Assembly (NCBI GenBank): GCA_002742935.1
Contig: PDON01000065.1
Coordinates: 6,894-70,893 of the forward strand
Source: Candidatus Cloacimonadota bacterium
GTDB taxonomy: Bacteria; UBA4055
Length of the DNA stretch: 64,000 nt
Direction of reading: 5' to 3'
How positions within the stretch are numbered: the stretch's first letter is position 1; each line of letters starts with the position of its first letter. Positions 2,388 through 62,349 of the stretch are shown in pieces. Made by a program: the position numbers and the translations under genes. Under the pieces are notes generated by a model. The model made no database searches. It was not told the DNA's origin and was given only the letters and a program-made list of their open reading frames with translations.

Positions 2388-3521
2388 TTAATTTAATATT
2401 TTATACACTTCTATAGTTAATTTATCCTTGTTTAAAACAAAGATCTTATCCTTATATATTCTAAACTCAAGGGTAAGAAAAAGTTCTGGATTATTTACCT
2501 CAAAATCCATAGAAAGTGAGTTTTGGAAAATATTATCAATAAAAATATCAAACTTTACACCTTTCTCTTCATCTGGAACCGCAACCCAAACTCTGTTTAG
2601 ATGATCGATAAAGATACCGTTTATAGATTTTTTATAATCTAACCCTTTAAAACCTTTTAACTCATTACCCATGATAGAGTTTTTATTTTTTTTATCAGGA
2701 TTACTCTTTTTCTTTATATAGCTTTTTCTTATTTCAGAGATCTTCTCTTTATTGCTATTGAAAATATAGTATCTATAGCTATCACTACTATTTTCAGCTA
2801 TGTAGATATTTCCTCTAGAATCAAAATCTACTTTAGGAATCATACCTGTCAAAGATTCAGAACTATTGGTTTCAAATTTACTATATTTATATATCTCTCT
2901 TCCTTGAATAAAATAGCTATAATCAAAGAGATAGATATTATTACTAAGCTCCATCTCGCTCTTTGAAAAATCAGGCATTATTGCAGATCCTAGTAAAAGA
3001 TTATTCTGATACTTTTTTACATAGGTTGGCATAACCTGTTTTGGAAGGTCCCTTTTCTCAATAAAAGTTCCATCAGAATTAAAGATTAAAAATCTCTTAT
3101 TCCCAGGCATAAGGATATGAACTCTATCATTTATACAAACCATATTTACAACATAATCTCTTATGATAAACTCTCCCGGACCACTTCCCAATCCACCAAA
3201 AGAGAGAAGATAATTACCTCTATCATCATATTTAAAAACCTTTGACTGCTTTTTATCCAGTAGATATATATTTCCATTCTTATCAATATCAAATGAGGAA
3301 ATATCATTTATATAAATAGAATCATTTACCTGTGAACTTAATGTAAACAGTTTCTCTATTTCAATCTTAAAAGAATCATCAGCAGGAGTATTTTTATTTA
3401 TATAGTATGTTACCCCATTTTCTGTATAACTCTTGATTTTTTTGCTACAGCTAAAAGTAAAAAGAATTACAAATATGATTACAAAAGATTTTGACATATT
3501 TTTCATTATTTTTAATTCCAT
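2388..3521 (-). CDS. Hypothetical lipoprotein, beta-propeller-like.
   Basis: Signal peptide plus FSCSKK lipobox. Repeated GNIY/DxxGNxY beta-strand motifs. Confidence 0.45.
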   Translation of the reverse strand: MELKIMKNMSKSFVIIFVILFTFSCSKKIKSYTENGVTYYINKNTPADDSFKIEIEKLFTLSSQVNDSIYINDISSFDIDKNGNIYLLDKKQSKVFKYDDRGNYLLSFGGLGSGPGEFIIRDYVVNMVCINDRVHILMPGNKRFLIFNSDGTFIEKRDLPKQVMPTYVKKYQNNLLLGSAIMPDFSKSEMELSNNIYLFDYSYFIQGREIYKYSKFETNSSESLTGMIPKVDFDSRGNIYIAENSSDSYRYYIFNSNKEKISEIRKSYIKKKSNPDKKNKNSIMGNELKGFKGLDYKKSINGIFIDHLNRVWVAVPDEEKGVKFDIFIDNIFQNSLSMDFEVNNPELFLTLEFRIYKDKIFVLNKDKLTIEVYKILN

Positions 3522-4264
3522 TTTTTATCTTTATGCCCATACTTAAAGATAAGCCAGCTCTCTTTTTCATCACTACATTACATATTTCTTCTTTTTCTAG
3601 TAAATAAATATTTTGGTAACCAAAAGCAATTTCTACAATAAAAAATATATTCTTTTTATCAAACCAACAATCCTAATATTTTTGTCGCAGATTTAATCCT
3701 TGTGTACTAACTATTATTCTGTACTTTCATAATATTTAATTTTTTCTAAGTGCTACTCCTAAGTTTAGAATGATAAAACTATTTGATATATAATATAGAT
3801 ATAAATAAAAAAAATATTCGTGTCAAGGAGTAGAGATTAAATTTTAAACTTTATTTATAGCCCTTAGGATAGAACCTCTAGTATCCAAAATAATTTTTAT
3901 TAAATCTACAGATCTATTTTTGAAATCTATAAACTTTTTTTTTGGGAACTTTTTATAGCCAAAAGAAGCAAAAGAGGAATTAGGGTGAATAGATAAAACT
4001 ACTCTAAAAAATCAGACTGACTAGAAGCGAGCAGTACAAGGAATTACTTTTTTATGTAATTTAAGCCTATAATTACTAGGTGATTTGAACATAAAAATCA
4101 ACTTATCTTACTGACGGTTTATAGACAATCTGAATTTTTCACAAACTGAGATATACAAACCTATTTTTATCATACCCCGTATTAACTATAGTTTCTATTT
4201 TAGCAAACAGATATTTGCATTAAATTATAATCTATAAAGATAAATTAAAATAGAGGAAATCAGT

Positions 4265-6289
4265 ATGAACTATCCAAAAACTAGGAAATCCAACCAAGTT
4301 GATGATTATTTTGGAGTTAAAATTCCGGATCCCTACCGTCACTTAGAGGATGATCGCAGCCTTGAAACAGAGGAGTGGGTAAAAGAGCAAAATGCCCAAT
4401 GTGAACAATATCTAAACCAGGTAAAAGGTAGAGAAGAACTGGGTAAACAATTAAAAGATCTAATGAACTACCCAAGTTATACTACCCCTTTTAAAAAGGG
4501 TGATTACTACTACTTCTACCATAATGAAGGGTTACAGAACCAATTTGTTATCTACAGACAAAAAAGTTTAGATGATCCGGCAGAACTATTTTTGGATCCA
4601 AATACTCTATCTGATAATGGAACTACATCTGCTCATCTTAGTGGCTTTTCAGATGATGCTAAATTTGTTACAGTTTTTATATCTGAAGCGGGTTCAGATT
4701 GGCAAACTATTAAGGTTATGAATACCGAAACTAAAGAATGGTTAGAAGATGAGATAAAATGGGTTAAGTTTTCAGGTGCACAATGGATTGATAACGGATT
4801 CTACTACAGCGGATACTCAAAACCCGATAATAGTTCCAGTGATAAGAACCAGTTTCATAAAGTATATTATCACGAATTAGGAAAATCTCAGGAAAATGAT
4901 CAACTAATCTACGAAGATAAAGAAAACCCTCTTAGATTTCACACTCTATCTATAACTAAAGATAAGCAGTTTCTCATATTGTATATATCTGAAGGAACAA
5001 GTGGAAATAAAATAAAGGTTTTAAACAGAAGTAAAAATGGTAAAGAGTTTACAACAATTTTTGATAAAGATGGTTATGAGATGAGTATTGTTGATACCAA
5101 AGATGATAAGTTGATCACCATGACTAACTATCAAGCACCAAACTCTAAAGCTATTATTTTAGATCCTGAAGATCCTGAAAACTATACAGATTTGATCCCG
5201 GAAAAAGAGTATCCTTTAGAAGGTATAGTAATTACCAATTACGGTATAATTGCATCCTACCTCAAAGATTGCTCTACCTATGTTGAAGAGCTTGATGAAA
5301 ATGGTAAATTTAAAAGAGAGATTAAGTTTCCTACAATAGGTTCTATAGGAATTGGAAGTTACGAAAGGAGACCGGAAGAGCTATTTTTTAGCTTCTCATC
5401 CTATGTTCACCCTACAACAATCTACTCCTATAAAACAAAGGATGGAGAACTTAAACTTTTCAAATCAACACCAACTACTTTTACCCCTGAAAACTATACG
5501 GTTAAACAGATCTTTGTAGCTAGTAAAGATGGCACTAAGGTTCCTTTCTTTATGATCCATAAAAAAGGGTTAAAATATGATGGAAACAGACCAACAATTG
5601 TTTACGGTTACGGTGGTTTTAATATCAGTTTAACACCGAGCTATAATCCGGCACTTGTTCCTTTCTTGGAAAAAGATGGAATTTATGTTGTTACAAACCT
5701 GAGAGGTGGTGGAGAGTATGGCGAAAAATGGCATGAAGGTGGAATGAAAGAGAAGAAACAGAATGTATTTGATGATTTTATCTCTATCACAGAGTACCTT
5801 ATAGCAGAAAACTATACCAATCCTAAAAAGATTGCAATTAATGGTGGATCTAATGGTGGGCTCTTAGTGGGTTCTATTCTAACTCAAAGACCTGACCTTA
5901 TTGGAGCAGCTATTGCTGAAGTTGGAGTTTTGGATATGCTCCGTTTCCATAAGTTTACCATAGGTTGGGGATGGGCAGTAGAGTATGGAAGCAGTGATAA
6001 TAAAGAGGATTTTGAATATTTGATAAAATACTCACCTCTTCACAATATTAAGGAGGATTTTAACTACCCTCCAACTATGGTTATGACAGCAGATCATGAT
6101 GATAGGGTTGTTCCTGCTCACTCTTTTAAGTTTGTTGCAACTCTCCAAGAGAAAGCTCAGAAAAAGAACCCTTATCTTTTGAGGGTGGATATAGATTCAG
6201 GACACGGTAGCAGCAGTAGAGATAAATTGATTAAAAATGCAAAGGACAGACTATCTTTCGTTTTTAAAAATTTAGGTATGGAAGATTAG
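4265..6289 (+). CDS. Prolyl oligopeptidase (S9A family serine peptidase).
   Basis: 674 aa. N-terminal beta-propeller plus a C-terminal alpha/beta hydrolase with GGSNGGLL (nucleophile Ser) and downstream D and H. Strong family resemblance throughout. Confidence 0.9.
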   Translation: MNYPKTRKSNQVDDYFGVKIPDPYRHLEDDRSLETEEWVKEQNAQCEQYLNQVKGREELGKQLKDLMNYPSYTTPFKKGDYYYFYHNEGLQNQFVIYRQKSLDDPAELFLDPNTLSDNGTTSAHLSGFSDDAKFVTVFISEAGSDWQTIKVMNTETKEWLEDEIKWVKFSGAQWIDNGFYYSGYSKPDNSSSDKNQFHKVYYHELGKSQENDQLIYEDKENPLRFHTLSITKDKQFLILYISEGTSGNKIKVLNRSKNGKEFTTIFDKDGYEMSIVDTKDDKLITMTNYQAPNSKAIILDPEDPENYTDLIPEKEYPLEGIVITNYGIIASYLKDCSTYVEELDENGKFKREIKFPTIGSIGIGSYERRPEELFFSFSSYVHPTTIYSYKTKDGELKLFKSTPTTFTPENYTVKQIFVASKDGTKVPFFMIHKKGLKYDGNRPTIVYGYGGFNISLTPSYNPALVPFLEKDGIYVVTNLRGGGEYGEKWHEGGMKEKKQNVFDDFISITEYLIAENYTNPKKIAINGGSNGGLLVGSILTQRPDLIGAAIAEVGVLDMLRFHKFTIGWGWAVEYGSSDNKEDFEYLIKYSPLHNIKEDFNYPPTMVMTADHDDRVVPAHSFKFVATLQEKAQKKNPYLLRVDIDSGHGSSSRDKLIKNAKDRLSFVFKNLGMED

Positions 6290-58533: not shown

Positions 58534-59889
58534 CTATTCTATTATTTTTAAATATTTTTGAGACATTTTTTGATGCTCTGGAGATTTTAAATAGGATTCT
58601 ATAACAGGTTTAACTTTCGCTAATTTTTTTAGATTATGGTATTTGTGATAAAATCTGGCTAAATGACAAGTTGAAAGCAAATAATTTCTTTCGTCAGCTA
58701 TTTGTCTAAACAAAAGCCTGGCTCTTAAAAAAGATTTTTCTGATTTTCTATGTTCTCCTGCAATATTTAAATAAGAAAGTCCCCTAACTAATTCAATCTT
58801 AGCTTTTTGATAGTTATTTTCTTTAGTATATTTTTCAGCTTTTTCTAAATATTCGGTTGCATTTGTGTACTCTCTTAATCCATTATAACACATTGCAATA
58901 TTTAAGCATACTTTACCATATTCATCATCCTTTTCCTTTTCAAATTTAAGTGATTTTTTGAAAGATTCTATGCCCTTTTGATACTTTTTAACTCTAGAGT
59001 TAGAAACTCCTAATGTTACTAAGATTTGAACTTTAATTTTAGGATTAGAGGTAGTTGTTAATTGATTTTTAAGCTCATTAATAGTTAATTCGTGATGTTT
59101 TCCCTTTAATTCTAAAGACCTACAAGCACCCTTTATAAATTCAAGGGTAAAACCATTATTACTTGTTTTTTCAAATGTCTCATAAGCTTTATGGTAGCTC
59201 TTTTCTGCTTCTTCTTTTTGGTTGTTAAATTTAAAACAATCTCCAAGATGATAATAAATTTCTCCCTCTATAAAGGAGATTTTACTCTTTAATTTTTCTA
59301 AATATCTTTCTTTTCTTTTTAATATTTTCTTGCCTACTTCAATAGCTTTACTAAAAAGACCCTTATCTCTAAATATGCGGAAAAAAGAATAAATTATTTC
59401 ATAGTAGTTAGGATGTTCTTTATTTTTCGCGAATTTCTGATACTCTTCTAATAATACTTCCTCTTCTTGCTTTTCATATTCTTCAAAATTTTCTAATGAA
59501 GGGAATTCAAAATGCTTATTATTGGTAAGTTTTGCCTTTTTTAGATAGTAGTAAATTGTACCTGCTGTAACTTTGCGACCTAAATTAGTGATAATTTCTT
59601 TGTATGAAATATGCTTATTTTCTTTTTTAAGCTTAACAATTTTTCTCTTTTCTCTATAGCTTAATTTATGTCTTATTTTAAAAGATTCCGGGATTTTTCT
59701 TTGATAAGGTTCTTTTTTATTATTTCTCTCTTTTAGCCAACGATAAATAGAGTTTCTAGAAAAACTATAGGTTGTTGCTAGCATTGAAACGCTAAATCCC
59801 TTGTCATATTCTGCCAAAATTTCGTTTTTAAGTTTTATTGCAACTGTCATGTTGATAGCCTTTTTTATATTGTTTTTTGACTGCCCCAA
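58534..59889 (-). CDS. Putative transcriptional regulator: paired N-terminal HTH motifs plus a TPR repeat array.
   Basis: The N-terminal ~120 aa carry two HTH-like segments (…SRNSIYRWLKE… and …ISYKEIITNLGRKVTAGTIYYYLKK…). Tandem TPR-like repeats follow. Divergent from the small secreted peptide gene. Confidence 0.5.
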   Translation of the reverse strand: MGQSKNNIKKAINMTVAIKLKNEILAEYDKGFSVSMLATTYSFSRNSIYRWLKERNNKKEPYQRKIPESFKIRHKLSYREKRKIVKLKKENKHISYKEIITNLGRKVTAGTIYYYLKKAKLTNNKHFEFPSLENFEEYEKQEEEVLLEEYQKFAKNKEHPNYYEIIYSFFRIFRDKGLFSKAIEVGKKILKRKERYLEKLKSKISFIEGEIYYHLGDCFKFNNQKEEAEKSYHKAYETFEKTSNNGFTLEFIKGACRSLELKGKHHELTINELKNQLTTTSNPKIKVQILVTLGVSNSRVKKYQKGIESFKKSLKFEKEKDDEYGKVCLNIAMCYNGLREYTNATEYLEKAEKYTKENNYQKAKIELVRGLSYLNIAGEHRKSEKSFLRARLLFRQIADERNYLLSTCHLARFYHKYHNLKKLAKVKPVIESYLKSPEHQKMSQKYLKIIE

Positions 59890-59976
59890 AACTAGTATTG
59901 ACTCGTTTTTATTTCTTTTGAATAACTTTTACACTCCTTTTGTGAAAACATCTTAAATTTTAAAAAGGAGAATCTT

Positions 59977-60183
59977 ATGCAGAAGAAACTAACAATTCTG
60001 ATTCTAATTCTTTCAGCTTTATTAACTACTCTCAAGGCTGAAAACCTATGTTCAAATTTGCAAAACCAACCTACAATTGAGAAGTCTGACATTATTTCTT
60101 TAGCTACCCAAAAAGGGGGTCGTACAGGAGATGATAGCGATGACCCCATTGATAACGACCTTGATTTTGACAACTACAAGTAG
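59977..60183 (+). CDS. Small secreted protein or propeptide (68 aa) with an acidic C-terminal tail.
   Basis: AGGAG RBS 7 nt upstream. Signal peptide MQKKLTILILILSALLTTLKA. Supersedes the overlapping antisense ORF 59892..60173. Confidence 0.45.
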   Translation: MQKKLTILILILSALLTTLKAENLCSNLQNQPTIEKSDIISLATQKGGRTGDDSDDPIDNDLDFDNYK

Positions 60184-60728
60184 TTATTTTGTAACATTCT
60201 CATAAAATTAAGAACAATAACTAGGAGTGGCTCCATCACTATATCTATTATAATATATAAATTATAAGTGTAGTTTTATAGGGAAACACTCTTAGTTTCG
60301 TTTATAATTCCCATCTATTTCAAACATATAATTTATCTAAATAATAAAGTTTACAAATTTGTTTATTTTGTCATCTTTTGCATTATAATAAAAAACATTG
60401 GGAAAGTCAACTCTAAAATTGTGGTGTTTTATTTGGATTTATTTGACAATTTACTAATAATTAGCAAGTTAGCTGTAAATATCTTAAATATGGCTTAATT
60501 ATTTCTTTAAGAATTAACTTTTTCTTTATCTATGTAGCTTAACTTACTTTAGATTAAGTAGTTAACCATATAAACTTCTTATACCTTCGTGTCCTAAAAC
60601 TAGAACTAACTCGTTTTGGGAGCTAAAATCTATTTGTTATCCTAAAAACAGAGCTTATGAGTCGCGACCAATTAAAAGCTTCGAAGTAAATTAAGTTTAA
60701 TTAAAACTCCTAAAAGGAGGTGAAAAGA

Positions 60729-60863
60729 ATGAAAGTTGAAAAGAAAGCACAAAGGAGTTTAAAAATGAGTAGCAATTCTAACTTGATGCATGGATTTTTT
60801 GGTCTGTATCAATGCGATTTTGATCTCAGAATTTGCTGTAATGGTTGTAGTTGTACTACTTAA
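60729..60863 (+). CDS. Cys-rich micro-ORF (44 aa, or 32 aa from the alternative start at 60765). Candidate RiPP precursor peptide.
   Basis: GGAGG at 60716-60720, 8 nt before the ATG, and a second AGGAG before the internal ATG at 60765. Translation MKVEKKAQRSLKMSSNSNLMHGFFGLYQCDFDLRICCNGCSCTT*. Sits 167 nt upstream of the radical SAM/SPASM gene and is followed by a hairpin. Confidence 0.5.
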   Translation: MKVEKKAQRSLKMSSNSNLMHGFFGLYQCDFDLRICCNGCSCTT

Positions 60864-61029
60864 TAGTGCCTTTGTACACTATCAATGAGGCTACTCCTTT
60901 GGGATAGCCTCATTATGATCGTTGCACAATAGATTCTTTAAGAAAAAAAAGAATCTTCAAATCATTATTTCAACTATAAATTCATTTTCATGTTAACTGT
61001 AATCTTAAAGTTTAATCGGAGATTTTACA

Positions 61030-62349
61030 ATGAAGTATAAACAGAGTTTTTATAATATATGGCAAGCTCAAAAAGAAAAAGTTTATCTACTAAATACTTA
61101 TTCGGGGAGTATTGTTTCTGTAAATAAAAATGAAATTGGGGTTGTAAACTCAATTCTTGAAGATAAAAATGATATAGATATTGTAAATGAAGAAAAAATA
61201 AAAGAATACATAAAGGTCTTACTTGATAACGGTTTTTTAATTCCTGAAGAGGTTAACGAAAGAGATAGTTTGCAATATATTTATAAATTAAACTATTTTG
61301 ACTCTTCAGTTCTTGATATTGTTCTACTTCCAACAATGAGATGTAATTTTAAATGTCCATATTGCTACGAAGAAGAAAAACAAATGACTTTAACTGAAGA
61401 AAGATTACAATCTTTAATAAAGTTTGCAGAAAAAAATTTTATAAATAAAAATCGAGTAACAATTGGTTTATTTGGAGGAGAACCATTATTAGAATGGAAA
61501 AAAATTAAGAAATTTTTTGATATCGTTTTAAACTTGTCAAAGAAATATGGTTTTATGTTCGCCCCGTCAATAACAACAAATGCTTATTTGTTTGAAAAAG
61601 ATATGATTAACGATATGATTGATAAATATCATTTCAGGTCATTTCAAATATCAATTGATGGATATAAAACGACCCATAATACAACACGAGTGCTAATAGA
61701 GAATGGCAAGGGAACTTATGAAACTGTTCTAAAAAATTTTAAACTTCTTTTAGAAAAGAAGAAACAATCAAAAAAAAATTACAGCTTAACATTAAGAGTT
61801 AATCTTATGAACACAGATGAAAAAAGCATACTAAAACTCTTTAATGAATTTGACTACAATGAAAAAGAACTGTTTTATATTTATTTTAGACCTATTTACA
61901 ATACGAAAAATTTTTGTATTTCAAATTCCAATTATAAAAATTTAGAATCATTTTATTCTTTAGCTATCAAAGAAGGATTTAATGTCGTAACTCCAGGGTC
62001 TAATAGTTTCACTAGCATTCAAGCATGTGAAGGAGACGGTGGAATACACCAAATAGAGATTATGCCTAACCTTTCAATTTGGAAATGCTCAAATAATTTA
62101 AATTGTAAAGAAGCAAATATCGGGGAAATCTGTAATGATGGTAATATTAAATTATTTTATGATAGACTGGAAAAATGGAGTAAAAACAATCCTTTTGAAT
62201 ACGAGAAATGCTCAAATTGTAAGTATCTTCCACTATGTTGGGGAAGCTGTCCATTAAACTTTCTTCTTAATAAGAAAAGAAATTGTTTTTACGAAAAAGA
62301 TTTCAATTTAGTTAATTTATTCTTAAATTCTAGAATTGGAGCTTCATAG
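61030..62349 (+). CDS. Radical SAM/SPASM-domain peptide maturase with an N-terminal PqqD-like RRE (sactipeptide/ranthipeptide-type RiPP maturase).
   Basis: CNFKCPYC (CxxxCxxC) radical SAM cluster. C-terminal SPASM Cys pattern CEGDGG...CSN...CSNCKYLPLCWGSCP. N-terminal ~90 aa winged-helix-like segment before the rSAM core. Confidence 0.8.
   Translation: MKYKQSFYNIWQAQKEKVYLLNTYSGSIVSVNKNEIGVVNSILEDKNDIDIVNEEKIKEYIKVLLDNGFLIPEEVNERDSLQYIYKLNYFDSSVLDIVLLPTMRCNFKCPYCYEEEKQMTLTEERLQSLIKFAEKNFINKNRVTIGLFGGEPLLEWKKIKKFFDIVLNLSKKYGFMFAPSITTNAYLFEKDMINDMIDKYHFRSFQISIDGYKTTHNTTRVLIENGKGTYETVLKNFKLLLEKKKQSKKNYSLTLRVNLMNTDEKSILKLFNEFDYNEKELFYIYFRPIYNTKNFCISNSNYKNLESFYSLAIKEGFNVVTPGSNSFTSIQACEGDGGIHQIEIMPNLSIWKCSNNLNCKEANIGEICNDGNIKLFYDRLEKWSKNNPFEYEKCSNCKYLPLCWGSCPLNFLLNKKRNCFYEKDFNLVNLFLNSRIGAS

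Follow-up and report, generated by a model that had tools for sequence, protein, structure and literature searches.

A repeated pseudo-palindrome at a RiPP locus of a Candidatus Cloacimonadota bacterium: putative operators of an adjacent double helix-turn-helix regulator

What is the function of a short sequence that occurs twice at one locus, first in front of a gene for a small secreted peptide and again in front of a gene for the precursor of a peptide that is synthesized ribosomally and modified post-translationally (RiPP)? Does it serve the regulator encoded next door, some other factor, or nothing at all? The locus lies in 64,000 nucleotides (nt) of DNA from a Candidatus Cloacimonadota bacterium (GenBank assembly GCA_002742935.1, contig PDON01000065.1, positions 6,894 to 70,893), hereafter the window, and all positions are in window numbering unless a related locus (L002 and so forth, our own handles) is named. 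The preliminary description of this DNA took the two copies to be operators by which the adjacent protein, a regulator with a helix-turn-helix (HTH) and tetratricopeptide repeats (TPR), co-controls both transcription units. We find this to be the best available explanation, strengthened by the double nature of the HTH, by the loci of related regulators and by one of these, L041, in particular; it is weakened by another, L005, which lacks the motif. On the basis of the sequence we give an even chance to both sites being operators of the adjacent double-HTH/TPR regulator. The two copies are as follows.

59882..59909, + strand: motif copy 1, containing the 22-mer at 59888-59909 and the palindrome AAAACTAGT-ATTG-ACTCGTTTT, within the spacer that separates the divergent regulator and peptide genes
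60590..60621, + strand: motif copy 2, containing the 22-mer at 60596-60617; the likeness to copy 1 starts at 60590

The 22-mers AAAACTAGTATTGACTCGTTTT (59888-59909) and AAAACTAGAACTAACTCGTTTT (60596-60617) lie on the + strand exactly where they had been reported. Their identity had been given as 18 of 22 positions; a recount gives 19, the copies differing at motif positions 9, 11 and 13. Their likeness runs 6 nt further upstream, giving segments of 28 nt that match at 23 positions, TGCCCCAAAACTAGTATTGACTCGTTTT (59882-59909) and TGTCCTAAAACTAGAACTAACTCGTTTT (60590-60617), which open with TGCCCCAAAACTAG in copy 1 and TGTCCTAAAACTAG in copy 2. Two conserved blocks of 8-9 nt are separated by 5 variable nt. 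Both copies are imperfect palindromes of the form AAAACnAGT-N4-ACTnGTTTT, with self-complementarity at 16 of 22 positions in copy 1 (8 of 11 pairs) and at 14 of 22 in copy 2 (7 of 11 pairs), and in copy 2 the palindrome extends to TCCTAAAAC...GTTTTGGGA (60592-60621). The four half-sites, TGCCCCAAAACTAGT, TGTCCTAAAACTAGA, GCTCCCAAAACGAGT and GAAATAAAAACGAGT, give the consensus tCCyAAAACkAGT.

The placement of the copies is best described with reference to four genes.

58534..59850, - strand: regulator of 438 amino acids (aa), a double HTH with a TPR superhelix (Pfam, NCBIfam, AlphaFold2)
59977..60183, + strand: predicted secreted peptide of 68 aa, with a ribosome-binding site AAGGAG 7 nt upstream
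60729..60863, + strand: RiPP precursor of 44 aa with a Cys-rich C-terminus …YQCDFDLRICCNGCSCTT, with AGGAGG 9 nt before the ATG
61030..62349, + strand: radical SAM/SPASM peptide maturase (Pfam Radical_SAM)

These identities agree with the preliminary description, as does the geometry of one copy in a divergent promoter region and the other about 110 nt before the RiPP precursor gene. Copy 1 sits in a spacer of 126 nt, with 37 nt separating it from the ATG of the regulator gene (59850, - strand) and 67 nt from that of the peptide gene (59977). Copy 2 starts 413 nt past the stop of the peptide gene (last base 60183) and ends 111 nt short of the precursor ATG. A pseudo-palindrome of some 16-22 base pairs (bp) is found upstream of both the peptide gene and the precursor gene, and both copies are oriented like the genes that follow them. 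The 68-aa peptide has a signal-peptide-like N-terminus, MQKKLTILILILSALLTTLKA, as judged by eye, and an acidic C-terminus, ...DDSDDPIDNDLDFDNYK; the Logan assembly likewise has its open reading frame among the called genes, and the product has no match in Pfam or NCBIfam.

The sequence downstream of each copy contains a candidate promoter.

59908-59913, + strand: putative -35 position TTTATT of the peptide-gene promoter, overlapping the end of the motif
59930..59935, + strand: TACACT, candidate -10 for the peptide gene, starting 20 nt beyond copy 1
60616-60621, + strand: putative -35 position TTGGGA of the precursor promoter, which is the end of the extended palindrome
60638..60643, + strand: TATCCT, candidate -10 for the precursor gene, starting 20 nt beyond copy 2
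60646..60690, + strand: conserved leader segment …ATTAAAAGCTTCGAAGTAAA…, matching L005 3756-3800 (blastn, 80% over 45 nt, E 1.8e-5)

At both copies a TAnnCT hexamer starts exactly 20 nt beyond the motif. The conserved leader begins just past the candidate -10 of the precursor gene and contains a palindrome, CTTCGAAG. In L005 the leader precedes a different first gene, encoding a SPASM-like protein of 162 aa, and directly upstream of it, at the equivalent of the precursor promoter, TTGACT-17-TATCTT can be read by eye. Elsewhere the promoters of the organism are of the ordinary TTGAnn-17-TAnnnT kind. The hexamer TTGACT within copy 1 (59898-59903) had been offered as a possible -35. This is not borne out, since no TAnnnT lies 16-18 nt downstream, TAACTT at 19 nt coming closest, and the equivalent hexamer in copy 2 is CTAACT. 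On the - strand TTCAAA-17-AATACT places a possible -10 of the regulator gene (AATACT, 59899-59894) within copy 1, and within copy 2 lies TAGAAC-17-TAAAAT, a promoter-like spacing that is compatible with a repressor.

Is the regulator a protein that could recognise such a site? Its N-terminus matches the Pfam families HTH_23, HTH_Tnp_Tc3_2 and HTH_Tnp_IS630 and the NCBIfam model of the IS481 transposase (E 3.7e-8), the C-terminal part matching TPR_1/2/8/12. An AlphaFold2 model of the whole protein (mean pLDDT 75) predicts three-helix bundles at residues 2-43 and 65-105 followed by an all-helical TPR superhelix at 119-437. The N-terminal 120 residues were modelled separately with AlphaFold2 from nine family sequences (pLDDT 80) and in a fold search of the PDB the top match is the DNA-bound bipartite DNA-binding domain of Tc3 transposase (1u78, E 3.7e-3), ahead of Pax paired domains, IstA, SETMAR and Mos1. 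Since the two bundles are not fixed in orientation to one another, the TM-scores remain low (0.3-0.4). Bipartite domains of the Tc3 or paired type contact sites that extend over some 20 bp or more and are built of two blocks. A bipartite double HTH therefore suits the motif, which is a site of 22-28 bp with two conserved blocks.

The relatives of the regulator provide a further line of evidence. A full HMMER scan of 1.84 billion representative proteins returned nine relatives with E < 1e-30, and a word-indexed protein search returned four in one metagenome; in the protein and metagenome collections searched there is no orthologue closer than the paralogous loci. A divergent gene for a small secreted peptide recurs in the family, at L041/L042, L039 and L040, and radical SAM and/or DUF5128 genes adjoin three family loci (L041, L039 and L005). 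The members with a divergent secreted peptide or protein have regulators 21-46% identical to that of the window.

L041/L042, - strand: peptide of 52 aa at L041 4327-4485; regulator 24% identical
L039, about 5700-5893, - strand: acidic secreted peptide of ~63 aa; a DUF5128 gene is downstream
L040, 1-about 100, - strand: divergent peptide like that of L041
L002, 1-113, - strand: divergent secreted protein; regulator P0003

A frameshift in a T-run, which may be an assembly error, interrupts the open reading frame of the L039 peptide, and the ~63 aa are obtained after a one-base correction. The sequences suggest that the cassette of a double-HTH/TPR regulator with a divergent secreted peptide is conserved and looks like a receptor-propeptide arrangement outside the Firmicutes. 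Because the cassette is conserved and three members lie near radical SAM or DUF5128 genes, local control by the regulator is a reasonable prior.

Past its peptide gene L041 carries, in order, an AraC-like gene, a Cys-rich precursor, a radical SAM gene, a TolB-like gene and DUF5128. The spacer between its regulator and peptide genes contains AAAACTAGTAACTTTT (half-site AAAACTAGTA), of which the first 10 nt are those of copy 1, in the same orientation to the peptide gene. The distance from AAAAC to the peptide ATG is 92 nt in L041 and 89 nt at copy 1 in the window. A weaker likeness, AAAACCGGTTATTG, is placed 72 nt before the L041 precursor ATG. In the first HTH the recognition helix, SRxT(I/L)YxW, is kept across the family including L041, so that a half-site common to L041 and the window is plausible.

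We propose the following mechanism. The bipartite DNA-binding domain would read the blocks (TG.CC.)AAAACTAG and ACTCGTTTT, either binding as a dimer on the pseudo-dyad or in a directional manner with one bipartite domain per site. Each site would end at the -35 of a weak promoter, TTTATT-16-TACACT or TTGGGA-16-TATCCT, and the centre of the site, near -43, would be where a class-II activator sits; transcription would be predicted to start near 59942 and 60650. By analogy with the RRNPP receptors, the TPR domain may sense a fragment processed from the secreted peptide encoded next to it, which would create positive feedback on the peptide gene and a density-dependent induction of the RiPP. The putative operators would then co-switch the peptide gene and a RiPP operon comprising precursor, radical SAM maturase, ATP-binding cassette (ABC) exporter and DUF5128 protein. 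Autoregulation of the regulator gene is also possible because copy 1 overlaps its possible -10. As to whether the regulator represses or activates, the sequence is equally compatible with either.

Several observations weigh against the sites being operators of this regulator. L005 encodes a regulator that is 88% identical to that of the window, with a near-identical DNA-binding region, and a search of the 15 kb of this locus that allowed up to 4 mismatches found no copy of the motif; the paralogous loci L002 and L003, with regulators 45-46% identical, are also without it. The match in L041 is a single find the size of a half-site, made post hoc, for which the strict half-site background is ~0.07 per kb. 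The copies number only two. The promoter positions are themselves predictions, and the shared offset of the -10 hexamers is a weak argument since the chance of some shared TAnnnT offset is ~0.1. Finally, when the same two-segment geometry is slid along the real window, the motif pair ranks second of 1052 placements, an unrelated pair near position 24 scoring 30.7 bits; the next below the motif pair scores 27.9 bits.

Some of these points need qualification. At the spot in L005 homologous to copy 1 there is a different palindrome, TTTTCTACTAGAAAA (4231-4245). The L005 regulator gene (4287-5606) has an in-frame TAA at ~5097-5099, beyond which the homology continues in frame to the normal end; this points either to a recent pseudogene or to an error. 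A DUF5128 gene sits beside this stop-bearing regulator and the peptide and precursor genes are absent. Given the stop and the lack of both genes, the absence of the motif is compatible with joint decay, though it lends no support to the operator reading. Three further comparisons do not inform on the issue. L041 and L042 are identical throughout the aligned region and so yield no footprint, the upstream regions of the family peptide genes are too divergent and AT-rich for an alignment with MAFFT to be informative, and the radical SAM-related clusters L032-L035, which have the same precursor-radical SAM-ABC core with other regulators, are without the motif.

The alternative that best survives is that the sites are functional cis-elements for another factor, a distant transcription factor or an alternative sigma factor, with the HTH-TPR protein binding elsewhere. 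Nothing ties the motif physically to the adjacent regulator, the near-identical HTH of L005 has no motif to accompany it, and with some 2-3% of the genome in view, as a rough estimate, a wider regulon is conceivable. However, no third copy is present in the 64 kb, the same half-site occurs in the spacer between regulator and peptide genes of L041, and the dyad symmetry and the length of 22-28 bp fit the bipartite HTH encoded alongside. The spacing is unlike that of promoters for extracytoplasmic function (ECF) sigma factors, where AAC-N16/17-CGT is expected as against 11 nt here, or for sigma-54 (in each case relative to the usual consensus), and inspection of the sequence gave a mismatch of spacing for the Bacteroidetes -33/-7 promoter also. 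We judge this explanation unlikely.

Could the two copies simply be a chance likeness of AT-rich intergenic DNA, without function? The window has a GC content of 30.8%, repeats of 20-30 nt with 72-85% identity are numerous in the region, a rough estimate from composition expects pairs matching at 19 of 22 positions somewhere in an all-against-all comparison of the 64 kb, and the unrelated pair of 30.7 bits scores slightly higher than the motif. Against this, the best ungapped local match between the peptide-gene spacer and the precursor spacer scores 30.0 bits, and in 1000 dinucleotide shuffles of both intergenic regions, which gave 17.6 +/- 2.0 bits with a maximum of 28.2, that value was never reached. 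If up to 3 mismatches are allowed in the 17 specified bases, a scan of both strands finds only these two places in the 64 kb. Owing to their dyad symmetry the two places each count once per strand, and the resulting total of 4 was reached in 1 of 100 shuffles, the expectation being 0.64 +/- 0.90. The repeat is thus at the extreme for AT-rich sequence though not unique on score, as one placement scores higher. Most of the rare G and C bases are among the matching positions, both copies are palindromic, and both lie upstream of, and co-oriented with, the two genes expected under a local regulator. In view of the dyad symmetry, the matching G and C positions and the location in two promoter regions of one locus, chance is quite unlikely. 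The shuffles, the symmetry and the placement bear out the description of the repeat as non-random.

A dispersed repeat had been named as the finding that would speak against an operator. The exact 17-base pattern has 25 scattered single matches in 185,579 species genomes, none of them in a relative, and none of these genomes contains two; the motif is therefore no dispersed repeat. We caution that the source genome is outside this set, so that occurrence only at this locus holds for the 64 kb. A related idea is that the copies derive from mobile DNA, as what remains of the terminal repeats or of the recombination sites that bounded a peptide-gene cassette of ~0.7 kb and were recognised by a transposase-derived HTH. 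The DNA-binding domain is indeed of the IS630/Tc1/IS481 transposase type, the outer ends CCCAAAAC...GTTTTGGG form inverted repeats around 59885-60620, and L005 has neither the two copies nor the peptide gene. However, the features expected of a miniature inverted-repeat element or of the terminal repeats of an insertion sequence are wanting, with two copies in the 64 kb, none additional in the window or in the species genomes, and no target-site duplication at the flanks of the segment. There is no clean empty site in L005, where ~400 nt of unrelated sequence is found instead, and the likeness as a direct repeat (23 of 28) exceeds that as an inverted repeat (18 of 25). No catalytic transposase or recombinase domain was found in the regulator with Pfam or NCBIfam, and the genes called in the neighbourhood have no such annotation. 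The two predicted three-helix HTH bundles are linked as in the Tc1/mariner/IS630 transposases and Pax paired domains (1u78, 6pax), whereas here a TPR sensor takes the place of the catalytic domain and the site is not at a recognisable transposon end. Attractive as it is in evolutionary terms, such an origin as the explanation of the sites is very improbable.

A role at the RNA level, whether of a hairpin in the leader, of an attenuator or terminator or of a stem-loop that binds protein in the two mRNAs, can be given hardly any weight because only copy 2 folds well (-10.6 kcal/mol, z = -3.0, as against -3.1 kcal/mol and z about -1 for copy 1); moreover a terminator scan is silent at both sites, copy 1 lies between divergent genes with nothing to terminate, there is no relevant Rfam match in 59700-61100 or in the L002 spacer, and with the candidate promoters transcription would start downstream of both sites.

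If the sites are the operators of the adjacent regulator, which known systems do they resemble? By analogy, the layout would work like an RRNPP circuit. The regulator has the C-terminal TPR-type superhelix of the RRNPP receptors, and the small adjacent gene for an exported propeptide is represented by the divergent 68-aa open reading frame with its ribosome-binding site. Membership of the RRNPP family is unsupported by the sequence, there being no profile match, another type of HTH and another phylum. RRNPP-specific models (Rap, NprR, PlcR, PrgX, Rgg, AimR) gave no match in Pfam-A or NCBIfam at E <= 0.1, and in place of the single XRE-type HTH of RRNPP transcription factors there is a double, transposase- or paired-like domain. 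The likeness to NprR structures at the TPR level is weak (E 5e-4 to 9e-4). Assignment to RRNPP from the fold of the whole protein was rejected, as the matches are generic TPR proteins and Rap of pLS20 appears only at rank 50. Surveys of RRNPP systems are confined to Firmicutes, in which such systems beside biosynthetic clusters are common (PMC10075063). The proteins identical to the products of this locus are recorded from metagenome-assembled genomes labelled Candidatus Delongbacteria and Candidatus Cloacimonadota, not Firmicutes.

The closest parallel in arrangement is with ComR and ComS of streptococci, where the ComR-box is a 20-bp pseudo-palindrome at comS and comX (PMC5131891). In both cases the gene for a cytoplasmic HTH and TPR protein, here a putative receptor, adjoins that of a secreted propeptide, and a pseudo-palindrome of ~20 bp occurs twice, before the propeptide gene (for positive feedback in the case of ComS) and before the target gene; size, dyad symmetry and the use of two sites agree. 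ComR differs in having a single XRE-type HTH rather than a bipartite transposase- or paired-like double HTH, ComS is a short peptide of leaderless type compared with 68 aa and a Sec-type signal sequence here, the host is a Firmicute rather than a member of a candidate phylum, and the box sequences are unrelated.

With respect to the genes under control, Rgg1358/SHP governs the streptide operon of Streptococcus thermophilus, with the strA precursor, the strB radical SAM enzyme and the strC exporter, and Rgg proteins have conserved sites in shp and target promoters (PMC13361665). Our locus follows the logic of the Rgg1358/SHP1358 system, with genes for a regulator and a small, putatively signalling peptide ahead of those for a RiPP precursor, its radical SAM/SPASM maturase and an exporter, which the regulator would control. 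The differences are that the peptide here is not a short hydrophobic SHP, there is no RRNPP profile, the radical SAM models match below their cutoffs, and the phylum is another. The PlcR box is a 16-bp palindrome, TATGnAnnnnTnCATA, with a sigma-A -10 downstream, and when placed between divergent genes it may govern just one of them (PMC2464732). PlcR/PapR of the Bacillus cereus group is similar to our system in that a Sec-exported propeptide is encoded beside a TPR and HTH receptor. PlcR has 28 boxes for 45 genes genome-wide, compared with two sites in 64 kb here, and both the DNA-binding fold and the box sequence are different.

As a cis-element, the motif would be of an ordinary kind. It is the surrounding system that would, on these comparisons, represent a new control of a RiPP cluster of the receptor-propeptide type with an unusual DNA-binding domain. 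One may go further and envisage that a candidate phylum which is uncultivated and probably diderm has, apart from the Firmicute systems, evolved an RRNPP-like circuit for signalling between cells by peptide, in which a transposase-derived bipartite HTH joined to a TPR sensor reads a Sec-exported peptide and the sites are its operators, possibly former transposon terminal repeats, through which the signal gene receives feedback and the radical SAM RiPP is induced. We consider this possible but doubtful.

Other features of the locus and of its relatives deserve comment. An alternative start of the precursor, GTG at 60720, is unlikely and the ATG at 60729 is preferred. The best NCBIfam match of the maturase, TIGR04463, is under its cutoff, as are the CefB and Clo7bot models. 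After the maturase gene come an ABC transporter and then a DUF5128 protein, in part past the end of the window according to the Logan gene order, and a gene of the lipopolysaccharide heptosyltransferase family (GT9) is nearby. Between the precursor and radical SAM genes there is a strong hairpin, AATGAGGCTA...TAGCCTCATT (60884-60914). The 72 nt around it (60864-60935) fold with -23 kcal/mol and z = -3.8 and carry no U-run, and because of that absence the hairpin may be a processing or attenuation stem that sets the ratio of precursor to enzyme. In the long spacer between the peptide and precursor genes a leftward, near-consensus promoter of sigma-70 type, TTGACT-17-TATAAT (11 of 12), is seen at 60410-60382 on the - strand. 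It would yield a transcript antisense to the peptide gene and heading for the regulator gene. The highest-scoring pair of segments in the window, mentioned above, is a 33-nt direct repeat, TGCTACATTTTTAATAAAAAAGATTAAAGAGAA and TGCTTCATCTGCCATAAAACAGATTAAAGAGAA, at ~24-56 with the second copy ~0.3-0.9 kb downstream.

With regard to the related loci, the 162-aa gene of L005 was considered as a truncated radical SAM gene and this was rejected, only a SPASM-like stretch of 34 aa being alike; L005 is a variant locus. In L003 an element of 194 nt occurs in copies ~88% identical before two unrelated lipoprotein genes by the P0004 regulator (1024-1773, 2623-3075). A 115-nt core of it is ~98% identical at L002 283-390, upstream of the secreted-protein gene beside the P0003 regulator. 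The element contains GGGAGGT, which resembles a ribosome-binding site, and tiny open reading frames on the strand of the target genes, and has no Rfam match. The closest homologue of the radical SAM enzyme (50%), in L032 (2018-5432), is accompanied by a TPR_MalT-like protein of 717 aa and a pair of small HTH_18 proteins of the AraC type; an AraC-type gene is within the L041 cluster too. Lastly, a 14-nt exact match to copy 1, CCCAAAACTAGTAT, falls within a coding region at L036 2573-2560 (- strand), 3.4 kb from the P0111 regulator gene, on a contig from the same metagenome.

Should the sites prove to be unbound they would be a mere local repeat of no wider interest. If they are the operators of the regulator, the 28-bp motif as a probe, together with the two promoters, would provide a handle on an undescribed family of regulators, and possibly a switch for a silent RiPP cluster of an uncultivated organism in a heterologous host. 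The binding properties of that family could reveal receptor-propeptide quorum sensing of the RRNPP type beyond the Firmicutes, achieved with a different DNA-binding domain.

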